Assembly: GCA_016934955.1 (NCBI GenBank)
Contig: JAFGRY010000030.1
Location: 5,899-69,898 of the forward strand
Length of the DNA: 64,000 nt
Reading direction: 5' to 3'
From: a bacterium
GTDB taxonomy: Bacteria > Zhuqueibacterota > QNDG01 > JAGLOF01
Each line of letters opens with the position of its first letter. Position 1 is the first letter of the stretch. The translations under genes were made by a program, and so were the position numbers. Positions 18,549 through 56,601 of this stretch are shown one piece after another. The notes beneath the pieces are model-generated. The model was not told where the DNA came from, did no database searches, and saw nothing but the letters and a program-made list of their open reading frames with translations.

Positions 18549-20687
18549 ATGCCTGATTCTCATACCACGACCGTCCCGTTCATCCCCGCCAGATTGCAGC
18601 GGCTCAGGGATCTTGCCGATAATCTGGCCTTCAGCTGGAACGATCAGACCCTTGGCCTCTTTGCCGCTCTCGATGAACGTCTCTGGCATATCGTCAATCA
18701 CAACCCGGTGCGGCTGCTGATGGAAATCGATCCCGGCAGACTCATGCAGGCGGCTGAAGACGAGAGCGTGCTCTCACTGTATGATGCAGCGGTCAGCCGA
18801 TTCGACGATGAGATGGGGATGGAGAAAACATGGTTCAGTCAGCAATACGCGCATCGCAAGGGACATCTTATTGCCTATTTCAGCATGGAGTTCGGGCTGC
18901 ATGAAAGCCTGCCCGTCTATTCGGGAGGGCTGGGAATTCTGGCCGGGGACCACCTGAAGACGGCCAGCAGCATGGGCATACCCATGATCGGGGTCGGGCT
19001 GCTCTACCGTGTGTCCTATTTCAAGCAGTTCATCGCCTCGGACGGCAGGCAGCAGGCGGTCTATGAAGGGGCGGAGTTTTCCGGATTGCCCTTGAAACTC
19101 GTTACCGACGAGGTGCGGCGGCCGGTCGTCGTCCGCATTCCGGTACAGGATCGGGAGATCAGTGTCCGGGTCTGGAAGGCCGAAGTGGGCCGGGTACCGC
19201 TGCTGCTGCTCGATACCGATTTCCCCGCAAACCGGGCATCGGACCGGATCATCACCGAACGTCTGTACGATGCGGACCGCACCTACCGGCTGCTCCAGGA
19301 ACTGGTTCTCGGCGTCGGCGGTGTCCGTATGCTGGAGGCGCTCGATCTGCCGGTGAGTATATACCACCTCAACGAGGGGCACAGCGCCCTCCTCTCCATC
19401 GAACGGATGCAGCAGCTGACGGCTGCCGGCAGAAAGTGGGAGGAGGCGCTCTCCGCGGTGCGGGAATCAACGGTGTTTACCACCCATACACCCGTTCCGG
19501 CCGGGAATGAAGTGTTTGAGCGGGAGCGGATGGAACGGGTGCTCAGTGCCCGGCATCGGGGAATCCTCGATCACAACGGGGGCAGCGGCTGGCGTCTGGG
19601 ACAGTGCGCCGATGAAGAGGAAACGGGAACCTTCAACCTGACCATCCTGGCGCTGCGCACATCCCGTAAAAGCAACGCGGTGAGTGTGCTGCACGGAGAC
19701 GTGTCGCGGCGGATGTGGCAGCGTGTCTGGCCGGACCTGCCGCTGGAGAACGTGCCGATGGACGCGGTGACCAACGGTGTCCATGCACCGACCTGGATAC
19801 ATCCATCTTTCAAGGGGGTGTTCCGGCGCTATCTGGAAGAAAGCTGGCATCAGCATCTCGATGATCCGGAATTCTGGTCGCGTATGGATGCCGTGCCCGA
19901 CGAGACGATCTGGAGTGTGCACCGGGAGATCAAAAAAAGCATGCTCAGGGAGGTGCGGCGGCGGGTCGCGGCTCTGCGGGACAGAAATGGCGAGGATGCC
20001 GCCGCCGTGTGCGGGGCCGCGGGTATCCTGGGTGATGATGTTCTGACCATCGGTTTCGCGCGCCGGTTCGCCCCCTACAAACGGGCGACGCTGCTGCTGC
20101 ACGATCCGGAGAGGCTGAAGCGGCTTCTCGGCAACGAAGACCGGCCGGTTCAATTTATCTTCGCGGGCAAAGCTCACCCCGCAGACAGTGACGGGAAGCA
20201 GATCCTGCGGTATCTCTACGAGTTCAGCCGGGATGCGGGCATCGCAGATCGTCTCGTATTCGTGGAAAACTATGATATGGCTCTTTCCCGCCTGCTCATT
20301 GCCGGATGCGACTGCTGGCTCAATACGCCGCGGCGTCCCTATGAGGCCAGCGGCACCAGCGGCATGAAGGCGGCGATGAACGGCTGCCTCAATATAAGCA
20401 TCAAGGACGGATGGTGGGCCGAGGCGAGTGATACCGCCTACGGGTGGACCATCGGCGATGATACGCAGGATCCCGATCACGGCCGGCAGGATGAACGGGA
20501 CAGCGGCGCCCTCTATGCGCTGCTGGAATCAGAGGTGATCCCCGCGTATTATCAGCGTAACGGCAGCCCCTGGAGCAGCCGCTGGGTCGATATGATGAAA
20601 CGGTCCATCTCCGCATTGACGCCCCGCTTCAGTACGGTCAGAATGCTGCGGGAATATGTCGGGACCTGTTATTTCCCGAACCGGTGA
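18549..20687 (+). CDS. glgP: Alpha-glucan phosphorylase (GT35, alpha-glucan family)
   Basis: YFSMEFGLHESLPVYSGGLGILAGDHLKTASSMGIPMIGVGLLY, HLNEGHSA, FARRFAPYKR and EASGTSGMKAAMNG (PLP lysine region). Confidence 0.9.
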   Translation: MPDSHTTTVPFIPARLQRLRDLADNLAFSWNDQTLGLFAALDERLWHIVNHNPVRLLMEIDPGRLMQAAEDESVLSLYDAAVSRFDDEMGMEKTWFSQQYAHRKGHLIAYFSMEFGLHESLPVYSGGLGILAGDHLKTASSMGIPMIGVGLLYRVSYFKQFIASDGRQQAVYEGAEFSGLPLKLVTDEVRRPVVVRIPVQDREISVRVWKAEVGRVPLLLLDTDFPANRASDRIITERLYDADRTYRLLQELVLGVGGVRMLEALDLPVSIYHLNEGHSALLSIERMQQLTAAGRKWEEALSAVRESTVFTTHTPVPAGNEVFERERMERVLSARHRGILDHNGGSGWRLGQCADEEETGTFNLTILALRTSRKSNAVSVLHGDVSRRMWQRVWPDLPLENVPMDAVTNGVHAPTWIHPSFKGVFRRYLEESWHQHLDDPEFWSRMDAVPDETIWSVHREIKKSMLREVRRRVAALRDRNGEDAAAVCGAAGILGDDVLTIGFARRFAPYKRATLLLHDPERLKRLLGNEDRPVQFIFAGKAHPADSDGKQILRYLYEFSRDAGIADRLVFVENYDMALSRLLIAGCDCWLNTPRRPYEASGTSGMKAAMNGCLNISIKDGWWAEASDTAYGWTIGDDTQDPDHGRQDERDSGALYALLESEVIPAYYQRNGSPWSSRWVDMMKRSISALTPRFSTVRMLREYVGTCYFPNR

Positions 20688-20788: not shown

Positions 20789-20835
20789 ATTTGCGTGTTT
20801 TATACACTCTCGTACCACAAGACAGGACCAGACGT

Positions 20836-21861
20836 ATGGCTGTGACTATTTACGATATAGCCGAAAAAGCGGGTGTCGGTATCGGCACCGTCTCCCGGGC
20901 CCTCAATAATAGTCCCCATATTTCCCTGCGAACCAAAGAAAAGGTCCAGGCGGTTATCACAGAGCTCGGGTATCAGCCGCACGCCATGGCCCGGGGCCTC
21001 GCCAAGCAGAAAACCTATACTTTCGCGGTGATCGTTCCCGTGTTTACCGGTTATTTTTTCATGGAAGTGCTGCGGGGTGTACAGCAGGAGGTCACCAAGG
21101 CGCACTATGACATGATTCTCTACAGCGTCGATCACAGTGACAAGACCGACCTCTTTCTGAAAAAGGTTACCAGAGAAAAGCGGGTCGATGGTGCGCTTCT
21201 CATCTCGCTCGGTATCAGTGACGTTCAGGCGTCCGCCTGCACACGGTTACGATTCCCCATCGTGCTGGTCGACAGCACGCACCCGTCACTCGATTCCATC
21301 ACGGTTCAGAACCGTCAGGGCGCGGAACGGGCCACGTCCCATCTTATTTCGCTGGGACATACAAAAATCGGCATGATCGATGCGCAGCTCAAGAGTTCTC
21401 CGGCGCAGGTCCGGCTTGAGGGATACCGGGATGCGCTGAAAAAGCACGGCTTGCCGCTGGATGAAAAATACCTCATCATCAGCGATCAGATCGCCGGCCA
21501 GCACGGCTTCAACCGGGAGTCGGGCTATCTGGCAATGAAACAGCTGCTGCAGCTCGGCAGTGAGCGCCCCACCGCGGTGTTTGTCTCCAGCGATATTCAG
21601 GCGGCCGGCGCGGTGCGCGCAATCAGTGAAGAGGGATTGACCATACCCGAAGACGTCTCGCTGATCGGGTTCGATGATATTGAGATTGCGGAATACCTGG
21701 AATTGACCACCATGAGGCAGCCCATGTTCCAGCTCGGGCAGCTGGGGGTCCGGAGACTGCTGGAGCGAATCGCCAATCCCGATCTCGAGCGGTTCCATCG
21801 CAGTTTCGATACAGAACTGGTCATCAGGCAGAGCTGCGGAATTGTGACGTCCACCAACTGA
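20836..21861 (+). CDS. LacI-family transcriptional regulator
   Basis: N-terminal HTH TIYDIAEKAGVGIGTVSRALNN, then a periplasmic-binding-protein-like sugar-binding fold (FVSSDIQAAGAVRAI, IGFDDIEIAEY). Confidence 0.9.
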   Translation: MAVTIYDIAEKAGVGIGTVSRALNNSPHISLRTKEKVQAVITELGYQPHAMARGLAKQKTYTFAVIVPVFTGYFFMEVLRGVQQEVTKAHYDMILYSVDHSDKTDLFLKKVTREKRVDGALLISLGISDVQASACTRLRFPIVLVDSTHPSLDSITVQNRQGAERATSHLISLGHTKIGMIDAQLKSSPAQVRLEGYRDALKKHGLPLDEKYLIISDQIAGQHGFNRESGYLAMKQLLQLGSERPTAVFVSSDIQAAGAVRAISEEGLTIPEDVSLIGFDDIEIAEYLELTTMRQPMFQLGQLGVRRLLERIANPDLERFHRSFDTELVIRQSCGIVTSTN

Positions 21862-21984
21862 ATCTCTGTTTCACCGCCTTCGGCTATCGCTTCCCGGTTT
21901 CACTGCAGCCCCGTCCCCCGGAAACGGGGAACACTTTCAGATGTAGATAACCGTTTACATATGTTAAATATGGAGCTGACAACA

Positions 21985-24900
21985 ATGAGAGGTGTACAAA
22001 GAACCGTTGCCATCGGACTGATGCTTTTCACGGTCTGTCTCGCGTCATTGCCTGTCTTCGCGGGAAATTCGGGAAAGATCACCGGCGTTGTCTATGATAA
22101 AGCAACCGGAGCGCCGCTGTATTACGCAAATGTCGTGATACAGGGCACCAATAAGGGGGCGGCCTGCGATGCCAACGGAAAATACACGATCATCAATGTT
22201 CCGGCCGGCGTCTATACACTGGTGGCGACCTACATCGGGTATTCGACGACAAAGGTGGAAAACGTCCGGGTCATGACCGATTTAACCACGACCATCGATA
22301 TTTACCTCGAACCGGGAGGCCTGACCGGTCAGACGGTCACGGTAGTGGCTGAGAGACCGATCGTTCAGAAAGACCTGACCGCCACTACCGCTGTGGTCGG
22401 TTCCGAAGAGATCAGGAATCTGCCGGTTACGGAAATCGCGGACGCGGTGGAACTGCAGGCAGGCCTGGTCAAGGATGCCGGCGGCGGACTCCATGTTCGG
22501 GGAGGGCGCAGCGGTGAAGTCAGCTACTGGATCGACGGCGTACCGGTAACAGACATGTACGACGGCGGCACTGTGGTTGATGTCAATAAAGACATGGTAC
22601 AGGAGCTGCAGGTTGTCAGCGGCGCATTCAATGCCGAATACGGCCAGGCAATGTCGGGGATCGTCAACATTACCACCAAACGGGGCAGCAACGAATTCGG
22701 CGGCAACATCACCACCTATTTCGGAGATCACGTCAGCTCTCACAATACTATTTTCATGGACGTCGGCAGCGTCAATCCCGTTTCCATAAGAAATGTCGAG
22801 GGAAGCCTTTACGGTCCCCTGATCAAGGATAAACTGTACTATTACGTGAACGGCCGCTATATCTATTTCGACGGCTGGCTGAACGGGCGGCGTCTCTACA
22901 ATCCCAATGCCGTTACCGGTCAGATAACCGCTACCAGGGATTTCATTGAATATTACGCCCCTGAATATCTTGACCGGGCGATTCGCCAGGATGACGGAAG
23001 TTACGCGTTTCAGTATGTGGTGGGGAGCAATGCCTACGTGGATTCACTGGTCACCTATTTCAATCTGCCCCAGGCCAAAGCGACGAACCCCGATTCGCTT
23101 GCCGCCTATTATGAGAAACTGCGCAACAACAACAAGGACGCTCTCGGAGACGGGAAATATATCCCCATGAACTGGAACCGGAAGATATACACCCAGGGAA
23201 AACTCATCTACCGGATCATGCCGACCATGGATCTTTCCTACAATTATATTCTCGACGATGTCAACTACAATGATTATGAACGGGATTACATCTTCAATCC
23301 CGACGGCGCGTCCCGGAAATTCAGGAGCGGTACAACCCATATTCTGAAACTCAATCATTCCCTGAGCAGCAGGACGTTCTACAATCTCGGTATTTCCTAT
23401 TTTATCAAAGGATTCCAGCGGTACCTGTATGAAGACACCCACGATGAGCGGTATGTCCACCCCTATCTGGAACTGCAGGATCCCTACTCGTTCAAAACCG
23501 GGGGCACACAGCTGGTGCATTTCAGAAGAAAAACCAGGACCATGCTGGCAAAATTCGATCTCACCAGCCAGATAACCGATCAGCACCAGCTCAAGGGAGG
23601 CATCGAGTACCGGCAGCACAATATCTTTCAGGAAGACATCAATCTGCGGCCGGCTGCCGGACAGACCGATATAACCCTGCCCTTCGACAGTCCCTATATC
23701 GATACCCGTGTTTTGGCGGACAGCACCATTTACTACAGCACCTACCGTCATAAGCCCGTGGAGTTTTCCGCGTATCTGCAGGACAAGATGGAGTTCAAGA
23801 GTCTCATCGTCAACCTGGGAGTGCGCATGGATTATTTCACCCCGGACGGTATTATTCTCACCGATGAGAGTGATCCCAATATCTATAATCCCATCAAGCC
23901 GCAAAACCGCTATCATGACTGGGGAACCGATGGTGTTCCCGGCACCTACGATGCAGACGGCAGCGAGGGGAACGGCACCCAGGATCCCGGCGAGCCGAAT
24001 GTGACGCTTGCCGAGCGGCAGGAGTACTGGTACCGGGATGCGACCTCCAAACTCCAGATAAGTCCCCGTATCGGTGTCAGCTTTCCCATTACCGAGCGGG
24101 GAATCATTCACTTTTCCTATGGTCACTTTTTTCAGCTGCCCCGGTTTGAACTGCTCTACCAGAATCCGGATTTCGAGCTGGGCTCCGGTACGGGCAACGT
24201 CGGTGTGATCGGCAATGCCGATCTGGAGCCGGAACAGACCATCAGCGGCGAGCTGGGGCTGCAGCAGGGGCTCACCGATGACATATCGCTGTCGGTGACC
24301 GCGTATTTCCGGGATATTCGCAACCTGACCGGAACAAAGGCGGATGAGATTCTTCTCTATGGCGGGGCAGCCCGCTACAGCAAGCTGACGAACAGCGATT
24401 TCGGATTCATCAAGGGAGTCATCCTCGCCCTGAACAAGCGGTTCTCAGGCGGGTTCGGCGCCTCGGTGGACTATACATTTCAGATCGCGGACGGCACCAA
24501 CTCCGATCCGGAGCAGGCGCGGAACGCCCTGGCGGGGGGGTCACTGCCGGAAGTGCAGCTGGTGCCCCTCAACTGGGACCAGACACACACCGTTAATGCC
24601 TCATTCACCTATGGCGGCAGAAACTGGGGCGCCAGTGTGATCGGCCAGTGGGGCAGCGGGCTGCCCTACACACCCCGGGCCTCAACCGATCTGAGCACGC
24701 TGCTGGTAAACAGCCAGCGCAAACCGGGAACAGTCAATGTCGATTTGCGAGCCTATTACGATGTTTCGCTTCCGTTCGGAAACGGGACATTCTTCGTGCG
24801 CGTGTTCAACCTGTTTGACACGCTGAACGAAATCAATGTGTTCAATGATACCGGCCGGGCCGGATTTACCACCGATCAGCTGGTAGCGGAGCGGTCCAAC

Positions 24901-24999
24901 CCGATTCTTTCCGTCAACACCCTCGATCAGTGGTTCACCAATGCAACCCACTATTCCGAACCGAGACGGATAGAAGTCGGCTTTACCTATAATTTTTAG
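21985..24999 (+). CDS. TonB-dependent outer-membrane receptor with N-terminal carboxypeptidase-regulatory-like domain
   Basis: Signal peptide MRGVQRTVAIGLMLFTVCLASLPVFA. GKITGVVYDKATGAPLYYANVVIQGT..GKYTIINVPAGVYTL matches CarbopepD_reg. The plug reads LQAGLV..LHVRGGRSGEVSYWIDGVPV. The barrel ends with the canonical ...GFTYNF. Alternative ATG at 21961. Confidence 0.9.
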   Translation: MRGVQRTVAIGLMLFTVCLASLPVFAGNSGKITGVVYDKATGAPLYYANVVIQGTNKGAACDANGKYTIINVPAGVYTLVATYIGYSTTKVENVRVMTDLTTTIDIYLEPGGLTGQTVTVVAERPIVQKDLTATTAVVGSEEIRNLPVTEIADAVELQAGLVKDAGGGLHVRGGRSGEVSYWIDGVPVTDMYDGGTVVDVNKDMVQELQVVSGAFNAEYGQAMSGIVNITTKRGSNEFGGNITTYFGDHVSSHNTIFMDVGSVNPVSIRNVEGSLYGPLIKDKLYYYVNGRYIYFDGWLNGRRLYNPNAVTGQITATRDFIEYYAPEYLDRAIRQDDGSYAFQYVVGSNAYVDSLVTYFNLPQAKATNPDSLAAYYEKLRNNNKDALGDGKYIPMNWNRKIYTQGKLIYRIMPTMDLSYNYILDDVNYNDYERDYIFNPDGASRKFRSGTTHILKLNHSLSSRTFYNLGISYFIKGFQRYLYEDTHDERYVHPYLELQDPYSFKTGGTQLVHFRRKTRTMLAKFDLTSQITDQHQLKGGIEYRQHNIFQEDINLRPAAGQTDITLPFDSPYIDTRVLADSTIYYSTYRHKPVEFSAYLQDKMEFKSLIVNLGVRMDYFTPDGIILTDESDPNIYNPIKPQNRYHDWGTDGVPGTYDADGSEGNGTQDPGEPNVTLAERQEYWYRDATSKLQISPRIGVSFPITERGIIHFSYGHFFQLPRFELLYQNPDFELGSGTGNVGVIGNADLEPEQTISGELGLQQGLTDDISLSVTAYFRDIRNLTGTKADEILLYGGAARYSKLTNSDFGFIKGVILALNKRFSGGFGASVDYTFQIADGTNSDPEQARNALAGGSLPEVQLVPLNWDQTHTVNASFTYGGRNWGASVIGQWGSGLPYTPRASTDLSTLLVNSQRKPGTVNVDLRAYYDVSLPFGNGTFFVRVFNLFDTLNEINVFNDTGRAGFTTDQLVAERSNPILSVNTLDQWFTNATHYSEPRRIEVGFTYNF

Positions 25000-25035
25000 A
25001 CGATGTCTATCACCGCAGCCAATCGGAGCGTTATT

Positions 25036-28000
25036 ATGAAAAGAACTGGAATCATTACCCCGTTAGTTATCGGCAGCCTGCTCTGCCTCGCGGCGGGCCG
25101 CCTTCCCGCCCAGAGCGGACCGCAGTATCAGCGGTCGGCCATCATGCGCGGCAATCTGGTGAAAACGGTGTTCGGCAACTGGGGCGTGATCGGGCAGCCT
25201 GCGGATAAAGGCGCCCGCGGTGCCTGGATATACGACAATAACGGGTATATCGGGGATGTCAGTCCCATGGTCGGCGCCGAGGTTACCACTGCCGACGGCA
25301 CCACTTTTCATTCAGTGGTGGTATGTCCCGTGGACCGGCCCACACGGCGTCACGAACAGTCGAACTCGGGCGAGTACTGGGGTTTTCAGCCTGTCGCCGG
25401 CTACTTCAATGAGAATCAGGAGGGTGTCGCCCTCTACAGTGATCCGACATCATGGCCCGCGATGTGGCCGGACAAGATGGACGATGCCAACGATCCCGGC
25501 TGGAACGGATCCTGGAACGGTTTTTTCGGCAAGACGACAACGGCCGCGGATGAGGCGTTTTTCGTCATGGATGACAACAATGACGAAGAATTCAACTATG
25601 CCGAGAATAACCGCTGGCACGTTTCGTTCAAGCCCGACGCGAACGATCTCTCCCGGAACGGCCTCGGCCTGGAAGTGAAAGTGCGGGCGATGCAGTGGGC
25701 CGATTTTCTGGCCCAGGACTGCATCTTCTGGCTTTATGAAATCACCAACACCAGCACCACCGATTACACCAAGGTCGTGTTCGGCATGCTTGTGGGTACC
25801 TATATCGGAGTGACCTCAACCGAGGATTACCGGGAGTACGAAGACGATTACTCGTTTTTTGATGTCGACAAGGATCTCACCTACACCGCCGATTTCGATG
25901 ACAACGCCAGCAGAAATCCCCTCTGGACCGGTGATGTGGGTGTGGTGGGATATGCGTTTCTGGAAAGTCCGGGCAACCAGTATGACGGCATCGACAATGA
26001 CGGCGACGCAGATGAAAATCCGCTGCTTCCCGGTACTGGCCCCTATTTTACTGCCGACGATTTTGTCCCCAGGGTGATCAGGGCCGGGGACAAGATCGTA
26101 CTGATAGACCGGTCATATAACCGTACGGTACAGACTCTGGGAAGCAGTCCCGTTACCGTCGTCACCTTCGGCGACAGTATCGACATCGTTCCCGGATCGA
26201 CGACGCTGGCGGAGGGGAATGTCATCATTCAGCAGGGCCGGGAGATCATCAACCCCAATGCCTACGATGGAATCGACAATGATCTCGACGGCGTTATCGA
26301 CGAAAACTACTACCTGCACTACCGCCAGATCCGCAAGGATCAGGAGGGTAACGTGCTCATCGACAAACTCAGTCCGGTTCGGCATAAAGACTATATCTCC
26401 GGGCTGGGAGTTGCCGATCCGCTCATCGACGAGCGCCGGGATGACGGTATCGACAATGACGGCGACTGGAACCCCGAATTCGACGATGTGGGCAACGACG
26501 GTCTCATCGGCACCAATGATCCGGGCGAGGGTGACGGATTCCCCACGCCGGGAGAGCCCAATTTCGATCAGACCGATGTGGACGAGTCCGACCAGATCGG
26601 ACTGACCAGCTTCGAATATTTCACCCCGGCGGTGGAATTTTCCATGGCGGACGACGAAGAGCTGTGGCAGCGTCTCGCCCCCGGTTTTTTCGAAGTGCCC
26701 GAATCGATCGTCAACAACAAACCCGAACGGGGAGAAGACGGTGATTTTATCTACGGCTCCGGGTATTTCCCCCTGCGGGCGGGAGAGACCCAGCGCTTTT
26801 CCCTGGCCCTGGTGTACGGCGAGGGCGGCGGCAAGGACGTCGATATCGCAGACCTGCTCAACAACCGGGAGACGGTGCAGAAGATCTATGACAGCGATTA
26901 CCGTTTTCCGCCCGCGCCTGACAAGCCGACACTGGTTGCGGTGCCCGGTGACGGAAAAGTCACCCTCTACTGGGACCGGAAGGCGGAAAAAAGTTTTGAC
27001 CCGGTGCTGAAGCGGTATGATTTCGAGGGTTACAAGATCTACAAGGCGACGGACCACAATTTCAATGAGGTGTTCGATATCACCGATGCATCGGGTAATC
27101 CGGTGGGATACAAGCCGCTGGCCCAGTTCGACATGGATGACGGTATCGAAGGCTACTTCCGGGCCAGTAACGATCTCTTCCAGCAAAGCAGGGGCGCTTC
27201 CTTTTATCTTGGCGATGACAGCGGGCTCGAGCATTCCTTTGTCGACACCGACGTGGAAAACGGCCGGCGGTATTTTTACGCGGTGGTCGCCTATGACCAG
27301 GGTGACGAGACCGCGGATATCTTTCCCAAGGAGAATGACAAGCGGATCGATATCGCCCCCTCGGGCACGGTTCGTACATTCCAGAACACCGCGGTGGTGA
27401 TCCCCAATGCCGAAACCGCCGGGTATGAACCCCCGGAAAACAGTATCGAGATCACCGGCGGCAGCGGTGTTGGAACCGGGCGGATTTATTACAAGGTCGT
27501 CGATGAAACCGTTCTCAAGGATCATCAGTACCGGCTCGAGTTCCTCGATACATCCAATGACGGTATTGACAACAACGGCAACTGGAACGTTCTCACCGAC
27601 GATGTGGGCAGTGACGGCATTGCCGGCACCTCGGATGCGGACGGCAGCGAGAGCAACGGAATCCCCGATCCCGGAGAACCGAACCTGGACCACCGGGACA
27701 GCCTGGAATATTTTGTACCGGTGACCACAGCCTATTCGGTGCGTGATGTCACCGGGCTCAGCGAGACCTTCACCGGCTCGGATACGTTCGCCGTACGTCT
27801 CTCGGTGCCGCATATCATTACCGAGACGGTGTCGGTTACCGATTACAACGGCAACACGGTCGATCCCGCAGAGTATATCCTTGACGGCATCAACGGTAAA
27901 ATACGGGGAAGCGCGCCGGGAGACATCGCATACGGACGCAATTACACGGTCAGCTATCAGTACTACCCGGTGTTTACCAGTCCCTATATTCAGAAGAGCC

Positions 28001-28887
28001 CCTACGCGGAAGAGACCCTTGATTCCGATATTTTCGACGGTATGTGGCTCTCGTTCAACAATCACTGGAAAATAACCCTCGATACCACCCGTACGTACTG
28101 GTCCGACTCCTCAAAGAGCTATAATTTTTCCTTCAACGTGATCGATACCTATTTCGGGGCTGACCGGCTCCTGGGACTCCGTCATCCGGCAGACTACGAC
28201 ATCATTTTCGCAGACGGTGTCATCGATACGTCCCTGACCATGCCCGAGCTGTTCGTGCAGGGGATACCGGTGAATTTCACCGTCTACAACCTGACCGATG
28301 AGCGGGATGTGGATTTTATTTTCGTCGATCTCGACCGCAATGCGCGGCTTTCACCCTATGACGAGATTGTATTTGTGGAAGAGGGGGAAGCCGGCAGTCG
28401 GATATTTACCTGGGATCTCTTTTTTACAAGCATGCTCGATACATCCTATATATACGGCACCGGTGATACACTGGCCATACGGTTGAAGAAGCCGTTCAGA
28501 AGCGGTGACGTATTCGAGTTTACTCCGGATGTCCCCGATGTTGACAGGACACTGCCCGCCGATTCCCTGCTCGACATGATCCGGGTGGTACCCAATCCCT
28601 ATGTCGTCGCCACCTCCCACGAACTGCCGCTGCCTCCGGCCATCACCAGCGGCAGGGGTGAGCGGAAAATCGATTTCATTCATCTGCCGCCGGGTGCCAC
28701 GGTCTATATTTTTACTTCCAGAGGGGACCTGGTACGCACACTGGAGCATGATAACAATATTTTTGACGGAACGCTTTCCTGGAACCTGAAAACATGGGAA
28801 AACCTCGATATCGCCGCCGGTATCTACTTTTACGTGGTAGAATCCTCCATCGGTATCAAGAGGGGTAAATTAGCGGTCATTAAATAA
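25036..28887 (+). CDS. Giant secreted acidic-repeat (Ca2+-binding-like) protein with C-terminal T9SS-type sorting domain
   Basis: Signal peptide MKRTGIITPLVIGSLLCLAAGRLPAQS. Four D-G-I-D-N-D/N-G-D/N type acidic loops. The C-terminus VVPNPYVV...VYIFTSRGDLVRTL..GTLSWNL..AGIYFYVVES..KLAVIK resembles a T9SS CTD. The ORF opens at 25003. Confidence 0.85.
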   Translation: MKRTGIITPLVIGSLLCLAAGRLPAQSGPQYQRSAIMRGNLVKTVFGNWGVIGQPADKGARGAWIYDNNGYIGDVSPMVGAEVTTADGTTFHSVVVCPVDRPTRRHEQSNSGEYWGFQPVAGYFNENQEGVALYSDPTSWPAMWPDKMDDANDPGWNGSWNGFFGKTTTAADEAFFVMDDNNDEEFNYAENNRWHVSFKPDANDLSRNGLGLEVKVRAMQWADFLAQDCIFWLYEITNTSTTDYTKVVFGMLVGTYIGVTSTEDYREYEDDYSFFDVDKDLTYTADFDDNASRNPLWTGDVGVVGYAFLESPGNQYDGIDNDGDADENPLLPGTGPYFTADDFVPRVIRAGDKIVLIDRSYNRTVQTLGSSPVTVVTFGDSIDIVPGSTTLAEGNVIIQQGREIINPNAYDGIDNDLDGVIDENYYLHYRQIRKDQEGNVLIDKLSPVRHKDYISGLGVADPLIDERRDDGIDNDGDWNPEFDDVGNDGLIGTNDPGEGDGFPTPGEPNFDQTDVDESDQIGLTSFEYFTPAVEFSMADDEELWQRLAPGFFEVPESIVNNKPERGEDGDFIYGSGYFPLRAGETQRFSLALVYGEGGGKDVDIADLLNNRETVQKIYDSDYRFPPAPDKPTLVAVPGDGKVTLYWDRKAEKSFDPVLKRYDFEGYKIYKATDHNFNEVFDITDASGNPVGYKPLAQFDMDDGIEGYFRASNDLFQQSRGASFYLGDDSGLEHSFVDTDVENGRRYFYAVVAYDQGDETADIFPKENDKRIDIAPSGTVRTFQNTAVVIPNAETAGYEPPENSIEITGGSGVGTGRIYYKVVDETVLKDHQYRLEFLDTSNDGIDNNGNWNVLTDDVGSDGIAGTSDADGSESNGIPDPGEPNLDHRDSLEYFVPVTTAYSVRDVTGLSETFTGSDTFAVRLSVPHIITETVSVTDYNGNTVDPAEYILDGINGKIRGSAPGDIAYGRNYTVSYQYYPVFTSPYIQKSPYAEETLDSDIFDGMWLSFNNHWKITLDTTRTYWSDSSKSYNFSFNVIDTYFGADRLLGLRHPADYDIIFADGVIDTSLTMPELFVQGIPVNFTVYNLTDERDVDFIFVDLDRNARLSPYDEIVFVEEGEAGSRIFTWDLFFTSMLDTSYIYGTGDTLAIRLKKPFRSGDVFEFTPDVPDVDRTLPADSLLDMIRVVPNPYVVATSHELPLPPAITSGRGERKIDFIHLPPGATVYIFTSRGDLVRTLEHDNNIFDGTLSWNLKTWENLDIAAGIYFYVVESSIGIKRGKLAVIK

Positions 28888-28929
28888 TATGCTGGGTATG
28901 CTGATTCACTTAGACAAGTGGAGATAGAT

Positions 28930-29952
28930 ATGATCACCACACGGAACATTCGCAGTGCTCTCACCCTGACGCTGGTCCTCTGCGGGAGCTCCCTGCTCCA
29001 GGGTCAGGCCAAAGTGGGGACAACCGCAGCGCCATTCCTGGGGATATCGGTGTCTCCGCGGGCCGCCGCCATGGGTAGCGCGTATGCAGCCATGGCTTCG
29101 GACGCCACCGGCATGTACTACAACCCGGGCGGGATCAGCCGCTCCGGCACATCGCAGTTCGTGTTCGCCCATACCAGCTGGCTGGTCAACACCGATCTGA
29201 ACTGGTTCGGGTTCGTGCTCAACCTCGGTGAGAGCGCTCTCGGCATAAGCGTCACCCAGCTGGATTACGGTGAAGAGATGGTGACCACCGTTCTGGAGCC
29301 GGAAGGAACGGGTGAGCGCTGGGCGGCCCGGGATCTGGCGGCCACGGTTTCGTTTGGACGCAACCTGACCGACCGGTTTTCCCTGGGCGGGAATGTCAAA
29401 TACATCCACCAGAAAATCTGGAATGAGACGGGTTCCGCATTCGCCGTTGATCTGGGCCTGCTCTATATCACCCCCTTCAATGACATGCGGATCGGCATGA
29501 GCATTTCCAATTTCGGCAGTGATCTCAGAATGGAGGGGAAGGACCTGATCCAGCGTGTGGATCTGGATCCGACGGCCACCGGCCACAATGAGACGATCGT
29601 CGGTAATCTGAAAACCGATCCCTGGCCGCTGCCGCTTTTCTTCAGAGTCGGTGTCGCTATGGATGTCATCCGCATGAGCCGCAACCGGCTGACCGTTGCT
29701 GTAGATGCCTTCCGCCCCAGTGACAACACGGAAACGCTGAATGCCGGAGCCGAGCTCGCGGTTATGGATATGTTTTTTCTCCGCGCAGGCTACAAGTCGC
29801 TCTTTCGGGAAGACAGTGAGGCCGGACTCACCATGGGTATGGGAGTGACCATGGCGCTGGCCGGAAGCGTGCAGTGGCATCTGGACTATACGTTTATCAA
29901 CTACGGCCTTTTTGAAGACATCCATATGCTGGCCGTGGCAGTGGGATTTTAA
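28930..29952 (+). CDS. PorV/PorQ-family outer-membrane beta-barrel protein
   Basis: Signal peptide, then AKVGTTAAPFLGISVSPRAAAMGSAYAAMASDATGMYYNPGGIS, the N-terminal signature I associate with PorV/PorQ. Alternating beta-strand pattern ending ...MLAVAVGF. Alternative GTG at 28918. Confidence 0.7.
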   Translation: MITTRNIRSALTLTLVLCGSSLLQGQAKVGTTAAPFLGISVSPRAAAMGSAYAAMASDATGMYYNPGGISRSGTSQFVFAHTSWLVNTDLNWFGFVLNLGESALGISVTQLDYGEEMVTTVLEPEGTGERWAARDLAATVSFGRNLTDRFSLGGNVKYIHQKIWNETGSAFAVDLGLLYITPFNDMRIGMSISNFGSDLRMEGKDLIQRVDLDPTATGHNETIVGNLKTDPWPLPLFFRVGVAMDVIRMSRNRLTVAVDAFRPSDNTETLNAGAELAVMDMFFLRAGYKSLFREDSEAGLTMGMGVTMALAGSVQWHLDYTFINYGLFEDIHMLAVAVGF

Positions 29953-30116: not shown

Positions 30117-30953
30117 ATGAAACGGTTGCTATTAGTTACGCTTGCGGTAGTGCTGCTGGCCGGTCTCGCATTCGGACAGGTCAATGTAACCTACCGTATC
30201 AACATTTCCACCGTTGCCGGCGTCGGTATCGCCGACTCCTCGCATCAGGTACAGGTCTGCGGTTCCGAAGTCGGTCCCGTGGGCCAGGATCTGTGGGAGA
30301 ATTCGTACCTCACCTGGGACGATGCTTCTCCGCTGGCCACCCATGTCAGCGGCGACATCTGGGAATTGACCATTTCCTATCCCGAATCGTATGTCGGCTG
30401 GCGGATGGCGTATAAGATCCGCTATAAATCGAATATGGCCGATGGATTCAGCTGGGAAAACGGCGACAACCGCATGTGGGTCATGCCCGCCCACGACACG
30501 ACCCTGGCGATGGCGTACGTGAACAATGCCTGGGATCCTCCGTACCGGGTTACGGACAGTGTCGACGTCTACTTCAGGGTTGATATGAGCGCCCATGAAA
30601 CATTCGATCCCGATAACGATATCGTCTATATCGTCGGCGCCTTCCCCGGACCGGACGGGGCCGACAATATGTGGGTGCCCGACAAATATGCCCTGACCCC
30701 GGAAACACCCGCAAATCTCATGTGGGGTTTCGACCTGAAACTGGATGCGGCCAGCGCACCCTATTTACAGACGATGTACCGGTTCACGCTCGGCGCCTGG
30801 GACAACAGCGAGCAGGTTTTCGGTCACGGCATGTTCCCGGATAACGAGAACCGCGGTATTTCCGTATACGGCGACACAACAGTCAACTGGGTATGGTGGA
30901 ACGACGTCGCACCCCTCCAGGTCGATCACGGTGACACCATGGTCGTCACCTAG
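30117..30953 (+). CDS. N-terminal part (signal peptide plus repeated beta-sandwich, CBM-like modules) of a surface protein, ended by an in-frame TAG
   Basis: MKRLLLVTLAVVLLAGLAFGQ signal. Modules begin VNVTYRINIS and VDVYFRVDMS. There is no sorting or anchor domain before the TAG at 30951-30953. Confidence 0.8.
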   Translation: MKRLLLVTLAVVLLAGLAFGQVNVTYRINISTVAGVGIADSSHQVQVCGSEVGPVGQDLWENSYLTWDDASPLATHVSGDIWELTISYPESYVGWRMAYKIRYKSNMADGFSWENGDNRMWVMPAHDTTLAMAYVNNAWDPPYRVTDSVDVYFRVDMSAHETFDPDNDIVYIVGAFPGPDGADNMWVPDKYALTPETPANLMWGFDLKLDAASAPYLQTMYRFTLGAWDNSEQVFGHGMFPDNENRGISVYGDTTVNWVWWNDVAPLQVDHGDTMVVT

Positions 30954-30962
30954 CACGCCGAT

Positions 30963-32111
30963 ATGGCCAAAGCGATCGCCAGCCAGGGTTTCTCATTCGG
31001 CGACACGCTGGAAGTGTCACACGGCTATTTCGGCACCGCTTCGGGCGTCAGAACCAAGATGATGCTGCGTCAGGGTCTCTCCACTGTTTACGCAGCGACC
31101 GACACGGTAGTCGGCACCATCGGTGAAGATCTCGACTATCAGTACTACCTCACCAAGAACGGTAATGAATATCGCGAGATCTACTACAACTTCTACTATT
31201 CCGGAAACACCACCGGAGAAGCGGAACGGCGGATTTATTACGGCATAGATGACGGCGCGGTCATCGAAGACATCGTTGACAGTCAGTCGGAAGAACGCCG
31301 CATGCCCATTTTCAGGAATACCAGCATTCTCGATCGGGATGTCCTGGTTACCTTTGAATGCGATCTGCGGCCGGCTTACTATCAGGTAATGGCCGGTGAC
31401 AGTCTCGTCGATATTCAGAGCGTTTTCACGGTACGTCAGCCTGAAGAAGTGATTACCTGGGGCGTTGCCATGAACGGCCCCGCCACCGGAGAGTGGGGCA
31501 CCTGGGGTGCCGGACTCATGCAGACCGACGATCACCGCATGTACGATGACGGCACCCACGGCGATGCCACGGCCGGTGACACGATCTACACGATGCAGGT
31601 GCAGTTCTATGCGGACAGTACCAATAACGTGGTCGGCCAGGAGTTCAAATTCGGGATCGGCGGCGGTGACAACGAAGGCGGGTACGGGAACAATCACATC
31701 GCCAATATCGATGATGCCGGTGCCGCCTATACGATCTACACCCAGTTCGGCAGCATCGACCCGGTATTCTATGATGCCTGGGACTTCGATCTCATGATGC
31801 CCACCGATGTGGATGATGCGGGCAGTCAGCCGCTGACGTTCCAGCTGAATCAGAACTATCCCAATCCATTCAATCCGGAAACCAGGATCAGCTATACGAT
31901 TCCCCGGGATGTTACCGTGACCCTGTCCGTCTACAATCTGCTCGGGCAGAAGATCGCCACCCTCGTCGACGGCCGCATGACCGCCGGCAGCCATGTGGTG
32001 ACCTGGAACGGCAAAGATCAGTTCGGCCGTCAGGTAGGCACCGGTGTCTACATCTACCGTATCGATGCGGGCACCTTCAATGCCACAAACAAGATGCTTC
32101 TGATGAAGTAG
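30963..32111 (+). CDS. C-terminal part of the same surface protein, carrying the T9SS sorting domain
   Basis: Same frame as 30117..30953, 3 codons after the TAG. No signal peptide. Module VLVTFECDL. C-terminus LNQNYPNPFNPETRISYTIPRDVTVTLSVYNLLGQKIATL..GTGVYIYRI..NKMLLMK is a T9SS type-A CTD. Confidence 0.8.
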   Translation: MAKAIASQGFSFGDTLEVSHGYFGTASGVRTKMMLRQGLSTVYAATDTVVGTIGEDLDYQYYLTKNGNEYREIYYNFYYSGNTTGEAERRIYYGIDDGAVIEDIVDSQSEERRMPIFRNTSILDRDVLVTFECDLRPAYYQVMAGDSLVDIQSVFTVRQPEEVITWGVAMNGPATGEWGTWGAGLMQTDDHRMYDDGTHGDATAGDTIYTMQVQFYADSTNNVVGQEFKFGIGGGDNEGGYGNNHIANIDDAGAAYTIYTQFGSIDPVFYDAWDFDLMMPTDVDDAGSQPLTFQLNQNYPNPFNPETRISYTIPRDVTVTLSVYNLLGQKIATLVDGRMTAGSHVVTWNGKDQFGRQVGTGVYIYRIDAGTFNATNKMLLMK

Positions 32112-32184: not shown

Positions 32185-35019
32185 ATGAAGATACGATACG
32201 TATCACTATTCTTAATTGCCGGTTTTTTACAAGCCCAGGTGCTGACCTGGTCCCCCCAGTTCGCGACCCGCAGCGACACGATCACGATCGTCTATGACGC
32301 AACTGGAGGCAACGCAGGTCTTACGGGAGCGACGGAAGTGTATGCCCATACCGGCGTGATCACCAACCTGAGCAGTAATTCCACTGACTGGCGCTACGTG
32401 AAGACCAGCTGGGGGCAGAATACGGCCGATACTCGTCTGACCAGCCTGGGCGGCGATCGCTGGTTGCTGAAGATGCATATAGAAAGCTACTACGGCGTAC
32501 CTGCAGGGGAAACCATCGAGCAGCTGGCCTTCGTTTTTCGCAACGGTTCCGCGTCGCGGGCGGGCAGGGCCGCTGATGGAGGTGATCTCTTCATTCCCGT
32601 ATATCTGGAGGGACTCCAGGTAGCGGTGATATCCCCCGCGGAAACACCCCTGTTCGGCGATGTCGGAGACACGCTGCATGTCACCGCCGTGGGCAGCAAT
32701 GCCTCCCGTATGAGCATCAGCGTCAACAGTGTCGATATCTTTGAAACAGACGGCGACAGCCTCTCTTGCACGCTCACGGCATCGGCCGCTGGCCGGCAGG
32801 AGGTACGTGTGTCGGCGTTTGACGCCACGAACGCCAGGAAAGAGACGACATTCGACTGGGTCATCAATCCTGATATTACCATCGCGCCTTTGCCCGAAAG
32901 TGTCCGGGACGGCATTACTGTCACCGGAGCCGCCGAGGCGGTGCTGGCACTCTATGCGCCCCGAAAGGAGTTCGTCTATGTGATCGGGTCGTTCAATGAG
33001 TGGAAGTGCGGCCTCGACGGTTTCATGCACCTGACACCTGATTCCAGCCGCTGGTGGCTGACCCTGAGCGGGCTAGATCCTGATTCCCTTTACCGGTTCC
33101 AGTATCTTGTAGACGGACGGATAAAAATCGCCGATCCTTATGCGGAACTCATCCTCGACCCCTGGTATGACAGCAACATCCCTGAATCCGTCTATCCCGG
33201 CCTTCCTTCCTATCCGGCGGGGAAGACAACGGAAGCGGTTGGCGTGTTCACCACTGCTCCTGATACATTCGCCTGGACCGATGCGTCCTACGAGCCCCCG
33301 GAAAAGACGAATCTGGTTATCTATGAACTGCTCATTCGGGATTTTCTGGCCGCGCATGATTATGCAACCCTCATCGATACACTCGATTATCTGGAACGTC
33401 TTGGCGTCAGTGCCGTGGAGCTGATGCCGGTCAATGAATTCGAAGGCAACAGCAGCTGGGGGTACAATCCCTCTTTTTACTTCGCCCCTGACAAGTTTTA
33501 CGGGCCCGCCCGTGATCTCAAGCGGTTTGTGAACGAGGCCCACCGGCGCGGCATGGCGGTGATTCTCGATATGGTTCTCAATCATGCATATGGAGAATGT
33601 CCGCTGGTACGGCTGTACTGGGACGGCGCCAACAACAGGCCTGCCGCAGAAAACCCCTGGTTCAATGCCGTGTCGCCAAATCCCGTCTACAGCTGGGGGA
33701 ACGATTTCAATCATGAGAGCGAGGCGACCCGCGCATTCTGCGACCGGGTGCTGGCATACTGGGTGGAGCGCTTCCATATCGACGGGTATCGTCTCGATTT
33801 CACCAAGGGTTTCACAAACAGATACGGGGACGGGTGGTCCTATGACGCGGGCAGGATCTCGATACTGAAACGGCTTGCCGATCAGCTCTGGAATATCGAT
33901 CCTGAATGCCGCATCATTCTGGAGCATTTTTGTGAAAACAGCGAAGAGATGGAGCTGGTAACCCATGGCATGATGATCTGGGGCAATATGAACACCGCCT
34001 ACAGTCAGTCCTCCATGGGCTGGCTCAATGACTCCCAGCGTCCCTCGGGTCTCTCCGGGGGGTATTACAAGGCGCGCGGCTGGCCGGAACCGGGTCTGGT
34101 TACCTATATGGAGAGCCATGACGAACCGTGGCTTATCTACAAGAATCTGCAGTACGGCCGTTTCGGGAACGGCTATTCAATTCGAGATCTCGATACAGCT
34201 CTCGAGCGTTACGCCCTGGCGGCCGCTTTTTTCCTCACCCTGCCCGGTCCGAAGATGATGTGGCAGTTCGGCGAGCTGGGATATGATGAGTACCTCCCTG
34301 AAGCGGGCCTTGAGCGGGTCGCTCCCAAGCCGCTTCACTGGGAGTATTTCCAGGAGCGGAACAGACGGCGGCTGTATGACACTATCGCCGCTCTGAACCG
34401 GCTGCGACGGAAGCACGCGCTCTTCAGGGACGGATCAACCACAGTCACCATGCGCGCCGGCCAGAATCAGTACGACCGCTGGATCCATCTGGCCAATGAT
34501 ACCATGAGAGCGACCGTGATCGGTAATTTTGATATTGTTTCCCGGGGGCTGACCCCCGTGTTCCAGCACAGCGGAATGTGGTACGACTATTTTGCCGGCG
34601 ATTCCCTGGAAATTACGGCACCTAACGTGGAACTGGTGCTGCAGCCCGGCGAGTTCCGAATCTACCTCGACCGCGCGGAGACCCGTCCGCTGCTCACCGG
34701 TGTTGACGATCCGGGTCCGGGGACCGACACAGGTATGCCGGCCGATTGTGAGCTGTACCAGAACTATCCCAACCCCTTCAACGGCAGTACGGTGATCAGT
34801 TACCGTCTGGGAAGAGAGTGCGACGTCACCGTTGACGTGCTCAACCTGAGGGGGCAGGTGGTCGCGGTCCCGGTATCCGGCGTCCGGGCCGCCGGTGTTC
34901 ATCAGGTTTCCTGGGGGGGGCGGAACGATGCGGGAGCGAGGCTGGCCAGCGGGGTGTACTTTGTCCGGCTGCGTCAGGGAAGGCAGTTGAGAACGGCGAA
35001 GATGATCCTGTTACAATAG
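32185..35019 (+). CDS. GH13 pullulanase/amylase-like enzyme with E-set/CBM48-like module and T9SS sorting domain
   Basis: YAPRKEFVYVIGSFNEW..YRFQYLVDG (E-set). NSSWGYNPSFYFAPDKFYG, AVILDMVLNHA, GYRLDFTKGF, ILEHF and YMESHDE (GH13 regions). C-terminal LYQNYPNPFNGSTVISYRL..VLNLRGQVVAV..SGVYFVRL..KMILLQ. Confidence 0.9.
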   Translation: MKIRYVSLFLIAGFLQAQVLTWSPQFATRSDTITIVYDATGGNAGLTGATEVYAHTGVITNLSSNSTDWRYVKTSWGQNTADTRLTSLGGDRWLLKMHIESYYGVPAGETIEQLAFVFRNGSASRAGRAADGGDLFIPVYLEGLQVAVISPAETPLFGDVGDTLHVTAVGSNASRMSISVNSVDIFETDGDSLSCTLTASAAGRQEVRVSAFDATNARKETTFDWVINPDITIAPLPESVRDGITVTGAAEAVLALYAPRKEFVYVIGSFNEWKCGLDGFMHLTPDSSRWWLTLSGLDPDSLYRFQYLVDGRIKIADPYAELILDPWYDSNIPESVYPGLPSYPAGKTTEAVGVFTTAPDTFAWTDASYEPPEKTNLVIYELLIRDFLAAHDYATLIDTLDYLERLGVSAVELMPVNEFEGNSSWGYNPSFYFAPDKFYGPARDLKRFVNEAHRRGMAVILDMVLNHAYGECPLVRLYWDGANNRPAAENPWFNAVSPNPVYSWGNDFNHESEATRAFCDRVLAYWVERFHIDGYRLDFTKGFTNRYGDGWSYDAGRISILKRLADQLWNIDPECRIILEHFCENSEEMELVTHGMMIWGNMNTAYSQSSMGWLNDSQRPSGLSGGYYKARGWPEPGLVTYMESHDEPWLIYKNLQYGRFGNGYSIRDLDTALERYALAAAFFLTLPGPKMMWQFGELGYDEYLPEAGLERVAPKPLHWEYFQERNRRRLYDTIAALNRLRRKHALFRDGSTTVTMRAGQNQYDRWIHLANDTMRATVIGNFDIVSRGLTPVFQHSGMWYDYFAGDSLEITAPNVELVLQPGEFRIYLDRAETRPLLTGVDDPGPGTDTGMPADCELYQNYPNPFNGSTVISYRLGRECDVTVDVLNLRGQVVAVPVSGVRAAGVHQVSWGGRNDAGARLASGVYFVRLRQGRQLRTAKMILLQ

Positions 35020-56500: not shown

Positions 56501-56568
56501 GCCCTGCGGCAGCTGCACAGGGTGAGCATGCAGGCAATAATGACGAGAGAACCGATGCGGATGGTCAT
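53503..56568 (-). CDS. Large lipoprotein, putative glycoside-hydrolase-like (TIM-barrel, DUF4091/GH123-like) protein
   Basis: Signal with lipobox (MLTLCSC). The C-terminal half (NIHHANEINPYINYPFYN..ARGIKVKLYNTIRELT..HIDGLYLDDIAF) looks like a glycosidase barrel. The family assignment is tentative. Confidence 0.5.
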   Translation of the reverse strand: MTIRIGSLVIIACMLTLCSCRRAGDSAAPAPPVIPDTIDGVVWEDGRWEHDLPSGSAGVSRGYHRAVLETAGDQGVHRALIPWRRHDPDPRETAVILVNGDTGKEIERVCPRAVTAEQGDILFQADSGSTRYYCYYLPYRTSGGYYPRVSHLRAAACSDSSWLRLQNHLAPGDLASLPAARVIAIQSQNAFHSFFPMEVAATGDELASLLSEHEDAFLLFPEFREYPVRMRSHIPVHWARQGPRDTLVFSARRGEYVTWQVAVYAPRKPLGVLSVEWTGLRESAAAIPRDSITCFNTGGIDLSGRPFAKKISVEKGTVQPLWFGAAVDPDQKPGLYEGTVTVAAESTPPETVHVALTVLSGRCADHGDDDPRLMSRLRWLNSTLGSDPDYIMPPYTPVRVDGHGLRILGRDITLGPEGLPARIQSWFSEEMTGPANAPRDILARPLQFSIIRDGAAEPWVSQPFAVTRDHAGRAVWTARSESKSARLTLEGTLEYDGMLSCRLTLTAREPFPADDMHLSVPMLPEAAEYMLGLGYPGQKRPGQVNWKWDITRHQEGVWLGAVNRGLQYVLRDDTYERPLNTNFYQQKPLKLPSSWYNGGRGGITITASDSEVTANNYSGARRLNRGDTLQFNIRFLITPFTYLDTKAHFTTRFVHAYVPVDSVAAWGGTVVNIHHANEINPYINYPFYNLEQQTAYISEAHARGIKVKLYNTIRELTYRCYELFALRSLGDEIFNDGEGGGHPWLQEHLQDRYHSAWHAWRVDDAAILNKGTSRWTNYYIEGLDWLARNQHIDGLYLDDIAFSRETVKRMVSVLNRSRPGAVIDLHSANQYNPRDGYINSAFLYMEHFPFITRLWFGEYFDYDQGPDYYLTEVSGIPFGLTGEMLQDGGHPYRGMLYGMTTRVYGTYDPRPVWRMWDEFGIAESRMIGYWVKHCPVRTGRPDILVTAYSRKNAALFSLASWSAQDETIRLAVDWNALGLDPSRVFITAPAVNGLQEYQEFDSVDTIPVPAGQGLFLFIQER

Positions 56569-56601
56569 GAGTGATACTCCCTTGCAGATGCGGACGCTCC
56601 T

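Follow-up and report, generated by a model that had tools for sequence, protein, structure and literature searches.

Here we describe three adjacent genes, found in a 64,000-nt stretch of bacterial DNA (assembly GCA_016934955.1, contig JAFGRY010000030.1, positions 5,899 to 69,898; referred to below as the window), that encode a TonB-dependent receptor, a giant secreted protein of an unnamed family and an outer-membrane barrel of the PorV/PorQ family. On balance, we think it probable that this trio is the outer-membrane core of a nutrient-utilisation locus that lacks SusD and relies on a secretion system of type IX (T9SS), the substrate in this instance being an alpha-glucan or a maltodextrin. 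We observed the genes and their domains, a nearly absolute synteny in which a trio has its own barrel, the recurrence of the trio beside different catabolic genes, and the conservation of the C-terminal domain (CTD) of the giant protein. The original prediction, made from the letters of the window, interpreted these genes as a surface capture-and-uptake module. As a whole this interpretation is partly supported: that the barrel tethers the giant protein, and that the latter binds a glycan or replaces SusD, we infer by analogy with known systems.

The three genes are co-directional open reading frames (ORFs) on the + strand and occupy positions 21961-29952. The receptor and giant genes are separated by 3 nt, and the giant and barrel genes by 30-42 nt, according to which start of the barrel gene is taken; there is no terminator-like site in either intergenic gap. 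The ORFs and the Pfam and NCBIfam matches agree with the predicted arrangement, i.e. three co-directional genes with gaps of 3-42 nt that follow a LacI gene in an alpha-glucan locus.

The first gene (21961..24999, +) encodes 1012 aa, with a probable start at 21985 (Met9). Its product matches CarbopepD_reg_2 (PF13715; 3.8e-19), CarboxypepD_reg (PF13620) and Plug (PF07715; 1.4e-09) in Pfam, while its C-terminal half matches the CirA and FepA barrel models of NCBIfam. By these matches it is a TonB-dependent receptor, with a plug followed by a predicted large beta-barrel, and has the CarbopepD_reg-plug-barrel organisation originally proposed. The best sequence matches in the PDB are the plug regions of CirA, YncD and PqqU; paralogous receptors carry PF00593 or PF25183. 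The SusC/RagA model TIGR04056 gives the receptor 62.1 bits against a cutoff of 368, and covers the N-terminus only (model positions 2-209 of 981). None of the ORFs scanned across the window contains a SusD-family Pfam domain, as had been noticed before. With a receptor from outside the SusC/RagA family and no SusD, the trio therefore does not belong to the SusC/SusD systems on either count.

The second gene (25003..28887, +; 1294 codons) encodes the giant protein, which has a signal peptide. Its probable start is at 25036, i.e. at Met12, where the database copy of the protein (1283 aa) begins; a look-up by exact sequence gave no record for the protein of the window. A regular-expression search of the translation located four acidic motifs of the form DGIDN(D/N)x(D/N), starting at residues 328, 422, 481 and 853 (25984-26007, 26266-26289, 26443-26466 and 27559-27582; total span 25984..27582, +), so that the predicted secreted protein of about 1280 aa with four acidic loops was recovered. 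Asp makes up 11% of the protein. The motif residues of the loops are invariant or nearly so (alignments A1 and A3), and many Asp, Glu and Trp residues are invariant in the family. Loops of the DxDxDG type are typical of calcium binding.

The giant protein has no NCBIfam match and no PDB sequence match, and Pfam gives only a sub-threshold CHU_C match at the C-terminus. By sequence or by fold (see below) it matches no characterised family, in line with the earlier impression, and every named homologue is labelled "hypothetical protein". By word-indexed searching, more than 3,565 homologues were obtained at E ≤ 1e-5; the top 120 align over the full length at 54-100% identity, and the source labels are candidate division KSB1, Gemmatimonadota, Ignavibacteriae and Bacteroidota. 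HMMER, run exhaustively against 1.84 billion representatives, puts the size of the family at 1,785 clusters (50% identity) for E ≤ 1e-3 and at 451 for E ≤ 1e-30. Average-linkage clustering at a chosen cut divided the 107 listed representatives of at least 950 residues into 13 groups. Relatives occur in the genomes of at least 597 species (one genome per GTDB species). These belong to KSB1, Ignavibacteriota, Marinimicrobia, Calditrichota, Cloacimonetes and WOR-3; the best 80 of the at least 597 species fall into KSB1, Ignavibacteriota, Marinimicrobia/Fidelibacterota, Calditrichota, Cloacimonetes and unclassified metagenome-assembled genomes (MAGs), the taxon labels of many MAG records being coarse. 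The closest relatives (70-78% identity) come from MAGs labelled KSB1 or without a label, which makes an origin of the window in the KSB1 lineage probable. There is no cultured carrier among the best 120 proteins of the profile search (orthologues from Ignavibacteria and Calditrichia), all of which are MAG proteins.

The third gene (28918..29952, +) starts with GTG, or with ATG at 28930, and encodes a barrel of 344 aa with a signal peptide. Its assignment to the PorV/PorQ family, as proposed from the start, is borne out by the general model NF033709 (198.7 bits, cutoff 90, model positions 1-325 of 326). The scores lie below the cutoffs of all equivalog models, i.e. PorQ NF033711 (97.3 vs 220 bits), PorV NF033710 (76.4 vs 250) and PorV2 (51 vs 325); among these the barrel scores best against PorQ, and its PorV and PorQ matches cover the N-terminal half only. 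It matches the PDB structure of PorV (6h3i_F) with E=0.006. The Pfam and NCBIfam scans returned models of the PorV family only, and none of the PorP/SprF family. Every one of the 16 trio barrels tested is recognised by the general PorV/PorQ model, the lowest E-value being 4.4e-74.

The synteny of the trio was counted in 80 orthologous loci and the first 7 paralogous loci (87 together), a locus being testable where its contig reaches, with L012 counted as receptor-adjacent from its neighbourhood listing. Wherever the contig reaches, the 80 orthologous loci show the same succession of genes, from receptor through giant protein to barrel. The receptor gene lies directly upstream of the giant gene in 72 of 72 testable loci, and the barrel gene directly downstream of it in 76 of 78, being within 5 kb in the remaining two. 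A LacI gene upstream (about 33 related loci have a homologue upstream of the receptor) and a secreted CTD protein downstream are also frequent in the orthologous loci. Mean identity to the window is 55% for the giant protein, 52% for the barrel and 51% for the receptor, and the giant protein is better conserved than the receptor in 53 of 59 loci. Single additional genes were seen at two places: a second barrel gene just upstream of LacI in L050 (2-931) and a second receptor downstream in L033 (18237-19595).

Paralogous trios were sought with a profile of distant subfamilies of the giant protein, and their Pfam-annotated neighbourhoods were read at ten places (L081-L090). A receptor gene is directly upstream of the giant gene in all ten (its product contains CarboxypepD_reg and Plug domains in nine, and in L090 has a TonB barrel match only), and a PorV-family barrel is present in nine. 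No SusD-family domain was annotated in these ten neighbourhoods. With about 80 related and 10 paralogous loci, the arrangement is far beyond chance.

The genes that surround the paralogous trios differ. GH13, GH57 or CBM20 genes (GH, glycoside hydrolase; CBM, carbohydrate-binding module) accompany five of them and indicate alpha-glucan as substrate (L081, L084, L086, L088 and L089). GH38 and GH130 genes point to a mannoside in L082, while GH94 and GH144, together with LacI and ExbBD-TonB, point to beta-1,2-glucan in L087. In L083 (7315-19374) the trio is directly followed by an Opp-type oligopeptide importer of the ATP-binding cassette type, consisting of SBP_bac_5, two permeases and two oligo_HPY ATPases; the module is therefore not glycan-specific. 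L085 (1-15837) contains two complete trios in tandem, with two barrels; the giant proteins measure 1362 and 1597 aa and match Reg_prop faintly. The trio is thus a generic module, which has been duplicated and attached to different catabolic sets. The expectation that it would be conserved as a unit beside different sets of carbohydrate-active enzymes agrees with this survey of orthologous loci in several phyla and of paralogous trios.

The same survey bears on whether the barrel might be the general PorV/PorQ of the genome, or an unrelated FadL-like channel, that is located here by chance. Membership of the PorV/PorQ family would be compatible with this, as would the FadL fold of PorV-like barrels in general and the co-matches to Pfam UPF0164 and Toluene_X at L082 and L085. 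However, the adjacency of barrel and giant genes counted above extends across phyla, paralogous trios have their own barrel (two within one 15-kb stretch of L085), and the scores fall well short of the equivalog cutoffs for PorV and PorQ, which makes a chance location extremely improbable. Since each trio has its own barrel and the trios lie beside different catabolic sets, the barrel belongs to the module; judged from sequence, it is module-specific and not a housekeeping PorV, and the locus-specific barrel of the original prediction has withstood this comparison.

Structure prediction with AlphaFold2 was more informative for part of the giant protein than for its whole. A near-full-length model (43 sequences) reached a pLDDT of 72.8 and returned only FN3/Ig fragments in Foldseek, whereas the model of the conserved core (residues 37-866; 25111..27600, +), built from 106 orthologues and paralogues, reached a pLDDT of 87.6 and a pTM of 0.83. 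The core is predicted to be almost all beta, with a large N-terminal sandwich, an inserted beta region, the acidic calcium-type loops, a helix and an FN3 domain. Foldseek found no PDB match for it at E ≤ 1e-3. The best matches, at E-values of 1.6e-3 to 3e-2 and over about 310-630 columns, are a GH15-like dextran dextrinase, GH94, GH149 and GH144; because the core is almost all beta, the overlap is probably with the N-terminal beta-supersandwich of these enzymes. FN3 domains were also matched weakly. We regard the modelled resemblance as a weak lead, which may point to a carbohydrate-associated fold but does not assign one.

These matches raise the question of whether the giant protein could be a new surface enzyme, e.g. 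with an unrecognised glycan-processing activity whose products the receptor imports. The weak resemblance of its N-domain to the beta-supersandwich N-terminal to GH94, GH149, GH144 and GH15-like enzymes would suit an enzyme, as would the many invariant Asp, Glu and Trp residues and the very high conservation of the family. On the other hand, the Foldseek matches are not significant and cover a non-catalytic domain only, and the invariant acidic residues sit in loops of the calcium-binding type. Moreover, the same core accompanies alpha-glucan, mannoside, beta-1,2-glucan and peptide loci, which argues against one shared catalytic chemistry. We therefore consider an enzymatic role improbable.

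The last approximately 100 residues of the giant protein form a T9SS-type CTD (28573..28887, +), which HMM (hidden Markov model) scans and alignment describe as divergent, type-A-like and interrupted by a family-specific insert (PNPY...SGRGER). This domain is strikingly conserved across subfamilies, with the consensus VVPNPY..A..WEP.....SGRGER.I.FIHLP..CTIRIFT.RGELV.T..H.....DG..SW.L.TKD.LD.AYGIYIYHV.APG.G.K.GKFAIIK. and a mean column identity of 65%, whereas ordinary type A CTDs of the same loci reach only 41%. Between the window and its paralogues the CTD is 46-54% identical, and the core 37-45%. The insert, which follows the PNPY motif and is about 15 residues long, contains invariant residues E16, R27, G28 and R30 (alignment A4), i.e. 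Glu and Arg-Gly-x-Arg. Among 28 CTDs of the family, 15 match the type A model TIGR04183 at E ≤ 0.01, one matches the type A Pfam model PF18962 (cutoff 27 bits), and 15 match the type B model CHU_C (PF13585) at E ≤ 0.01, all below its threshold; the type B model TIGR04131 gave no match in the window or in the family CTD scans. What is specific to this CTD is its high conservation and its insert, both of which fit retention on a cognate barrel. Conservation at least equal to that of the core suggests a domain that stays bound to a partner, since a signal that is cleaved off and discarded would have no reason to be so conserved.

The barrel might instead be a dedicated shuttle rather than an anchor, required solely for picking up this unusually large or divergent cargo at the T9SS translocon. 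The giant protein would then be released, or cleaved and attached to lipopolysaccharide, and would still be a surface or secreted helper of the receptor. Several points would suit such a function: PorV shuttles type A cargo (PMC5562754), cognate PorP/SprF shuttles are required for the secretion of type B cargo (PMC12618676), and slightly more than half of the family CTDs are type-A-like, as counted above. Nevertheless, a cleaved signal is not expected to be as conserved as the core, nor to contain an invariant, family-specific insert, and we judge the shuttle to be an unlikely alternative to anchoring, albeit the strongest of those considered here.

A further possibility is that the giant protein and the barrel serve the biogenesis or gating of the receptor, as an extracellular cap, plug or assembly factor for one receptor subfamily. 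In favour of this, the pairing with a single receptor subfamily is strict whatever the substrate, and within the trio it is the giant protein that is best conserved. In addition, a gene for a SurA-like peptidyl-prolyl isomerase (SurA_N and Rotamase domains) lies directly upstream of the receptor gene in L081 (5731-7104), L086 (5555-7276) and L089 (5527-7266); in L085 (19096-20826) such a gene is found about 3.3 kb downstream of the second barrel. This isomerase may be a dedicated periplasmic chaperone of the module. However, no T9SS cargo of 130 kDa is known to assist the assembly of a TonB-dependent transporter, and receptors of the same domain type (CarboxypepD_reg, plug and barrel) generally work without such partners in other phyla. 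A role in biogenesis or gating thus seems to us about as doubtful as an enzymatic one.

The surroundings of the trio in the window are a LacI-controlled alpha-glucan locus. Upstream, all on the + strand, lie genes for a GH13 neopullulanase/maltodextrin-glucosidase-like enzyme (16205-18193), an alpha-glucan phosphorylase (18549-20687; both by Pfam/NCBIfam) and, directly before the trio, a LacI-family regulator (20791..21861; Pfam LacI, Peripla_BP_1 and Peripla_BP_3). Downstream, also on the + strand, are genes for a secreted CTD protein (30117..32111), a secreted GH13 enzyme with CBM48-like and DUF4961 regions and a type A CTD (32185..35019; Pfam/NCBIfam), a sodium:solute symporter (SSS; 35057-37273; family scan) and a GH77 4-alpha-glucanotransferase (37315-38823; Pfam). 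At least four proteins of the window match type A CTD models above the cutoff, so the organism uses a T9SS. Type A CTD proteins with no other Pfam domain are encoded near both ends of the window (132-2033 and 62238-63662, both on the - strand), and a separate minus-strand cluster (53503-61535) comprises a GH123-like gene (1021 aa), an Ldh/Mdh-like gene and a gene for a DUF5107-TPR protein (1046 aa).

The secreted CTD protein encoded directly after the barrel is split by an in-frame TAG (30951-30953) into an ORF of 278 aa, with a signal peptide and no CTD, and an ORF of 382 aa in the same frame, with a type A CTD and no signal peptide. In 43 of 44 related loci the gene is a single uninterrupted ORF of about 670 aa; the codon at the position of the TAG is TGG in the closest relative (L001) and encodes Phe in other relatives. 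The comparison indicates that the TAG, lying in the gene for a secreted CTD protein that is conserved, is either a nonsense mutation or due to a sequencing error, and programmed read-through of the two ORFs was rejected on the same grounds. Counterparts at this position in paralogous loci have faint CBM20/CBM48 Pfam matches, and the 30117-32111 protein is therefore an equally good candidate for the role of surface glycan-binding protein as the giant protein.

The most divergent part of the giant protein (residues 867-1190; 27601..28572, +) is predicted to form two beta-sandwich-like domains (pLDDT 83-92 in the full model), and is 26-34% identical to paralogues over about 200 residues. It begins with a repeat (residues 867-904; 27601-27714) that BLASTP aligns, at 58% identity and E=6e-9, with an acidic insert in the receptor (residues 653-690; 23917..24030, +; DWGTDGVPGTYDADGSEGNGTQDPGEPN). 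In the set of receptors from the fetched loci, this insert's GEPN motif is confined to the window and L001. The idea that the shared motif is a conserved handshake between the two proteins was rejected for this reason; the insert looks like a recent transfer between neighbouring genes.

In the mechanism that we propose for the trio, the giant protein would be exported by the Sec system; its CTD would then direct it through the outer membrane via the T9SS, and its private PorV/PorQ-type barrel would collect it at the translocon. The CTD would be neither cleaved nor exchanged for a lipopolysaccharide anchor, and would stay on this barrel, holding the giant protein at the cell surface. Placed beside or on top of the receptor, the giant protein would capture or position oligomers as a capture, positioning or lid element. 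The oligomers would be released by the T9SS-secreted GH13 enzyme, aided by the neighbouring secreted CTD protein, and imported by the receptor, and the SSS symporter, GH13, GH77 and phosphorylase would complete their use under LacI control.

Several points weigh against this scheme. We infer, rather than observe, that the T9SS exports the giant protein, that its CTD is kept on the barrel, that it meets the receptor and that it captures a ligand. The window's own giant CTD scores 19.2 bits against a cutoff of 23 with TIGR04183, and 20.9-24 bits against a cutoff of 27 with CHU_C; of the T9SS-like CTD that had been predicted, the type-A-like features and the CHU_C match thus stand, and a score above the type A or type B cutoff does not. 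Likeness of this CTD to those of PorZ and PorU had to be dropped as a specific argument: the PorU and PorZ CTD models match 18 and 24 of the 28 family CTDs, but a control set of 14 ordinary type A CTDs from the same loci matches them as well (14/14 and 9/14, with 14/14 for TIGR04183), so the resemblance is not specific. The sequence and Foldseek searches revealed neither a carbohydrate-binding module nor a known fold in the giant protein. Its most divergent region follows no pattern set by the neighbouring enzymes, being 26-34% identical to all paralogues whatever their context, which leaves the idea that this region tracks the substrate unsupported. The synteny also has exceptions. In L084 and L086 other CTD proteins intervene between giant protein and barrel, and in L090 (7622-23411; CP070762.1, a complete 5.2-Mb genome) the receptor-giant pair has no PorV-family gene within 10 kb; downstream of the giant gene there are many short ORFs without Pfam matches, and this may be a disrupted or rearranged module. 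Finally, the T9SS core genes are absent from the 64-kb window.

The trio shares many features with SusC/SusD systems, in which a TonB-dependent transporter of about 1000 residues, with an N-terminal CarboxypepD_reg-like extension, is likewise encoded directly upstream of a surface partner. In both cases the genes belong to regulated loci that also encode an inner-membrane transporter and glycoside hydrolases, some secreted and some periplasmic, and paralogous expansion has provided one system per substrate. Apart from the receptor family discussed above, they differ in the surface partner: SusD is a TPR lipoprotein of about 550 residues, whereas the partner in the trio is all-beta, about 1,280 residues long, and bears a T9SS CTD as well as a signal of the signal peptidase I type. 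Furthermore, the trio has a third, obligatory gene for a PorV/PorQ-type barrel, and is also found beside a peptide importer. Genuine susCD pairs have been recorded by PULDB in Ignavibacteriae and Gemmatimonadetes (PMC5753385); these lineages are therefore not simply SusD-free, and the trio may coexist with classical polysaccharide utilisation loci.

The pairing of giant protein and barrel has its parallels within the T9SS. In Porphyromonas gingivalis, PorQ anchors PorZ and PorV anchors PorU at the cell surface (PMC5562754, PMC10947112), i.e. a barrel of the PorV/PorQ family is paired with one CTD-bearing surface protein, for which it is the proposed anchor in the trio as well. PorZ (beta-propellers) and PorU (a sortase) are housekeeping parts of the T9SS, present once per genome, whereas the proposed cargo and anchor of the trio are tied to a nutrient receptor and multiplied per genome; the giant protein is unrelated to PorZ, PorU or SprB. 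In P. gingivalis and Flavobacterium johnsoniae, type B CTD cargo stays on cognate, adjacently encoded PorP/SprF barrels, which are needed for its secretion and hold it without attachment to lipopolysaccharide (PMC9143113, PMC12618676). These pairs (e.g. SprB-SprF and PG1035-PorP) resemble the trio in that a large surface protein is encoded beside its own outer-membrane barrel and in that there are several pairs per genome. However, the barrel of the trio belongs to the PorV/PorQ and not the PorP/SprF family, its partner's CTD is type-A-like with an insert and sub-threshold for CHU_C, and the known type B pairs have their role in adhesion and gliding rather than with a TonB-dependent receptor.

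Outside Bacteroidota, a TonB-dependent transporter that works with a capture protein exposed at the surface and encoded alongside it, as we propose for the trio, is known from TbpA/TbpB. Partners of the TbpB type are lipoproteins, delivered via Slam or Lol routes, whose ligands are iron proteins of the host; neither a barrel anchor nor a T9SS signal goes with them.

No published description of the trio or of the giant protein family was found in the full-text literature, the coverage of journals being incomplete. The Caldithrix genome paper does not mention the trio (PMC5317091). In the paper on Melioribacter roseus, the starch-operon genes Mros0761-0759 are named SusC/D/E (PMC3534657); these may be true Sus homologues or the trio, named by position. 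A TonB-dependent nutrient locus with a surface partner built from T9SS parts thus looks new.

We tentatively put forward a broader hypothesis, in which we place less confidence than in the reading of the locus itself. In phyla of the Fibrobacterota-Chlorobiota-Bacteroidota (FCB) group outside Bacteroidia (KSB1, Ignavibacteriota, Marinimicrobia, Calditrichota, Cloacimonetes and WOR-3), the trio might represent a third, undescribed architecture for TonB-dependent uptake of polymers, both glycans and peptides. A T9SS-delivered, calcium-binding protein of 130 kDa, held through its uncleaved CTD on a private PorV/PorQ-type barrel, would here be the extracellular capture or lid element of the receptor, in the role that SusD has in Bacteroidota.

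SusC/SusD pairs are the marker by which polysaccharide utilisation loci are found, and a lineage that lacks the pairs is usually taken to have few such loci. If our hypothesis is true, glycan and peptide uptake has been systematically missed in abundant lineages from sediment, soil, ocean and bioreactors (Marinimicrobia, KSB1, Ignavibacteriota and Calditrichota), and the trio would provide a simple three-gene signature for finding these loci. A protein family that numbers at least 1,785 clusters (50% identity) would acquire a function. PorV/PorQ-type barrels would no longer be confined to housekeeping in the T9SS but would be general, cargo-specific surface anchors, and type IX secretion would be linked directly to TonB-dependent import.

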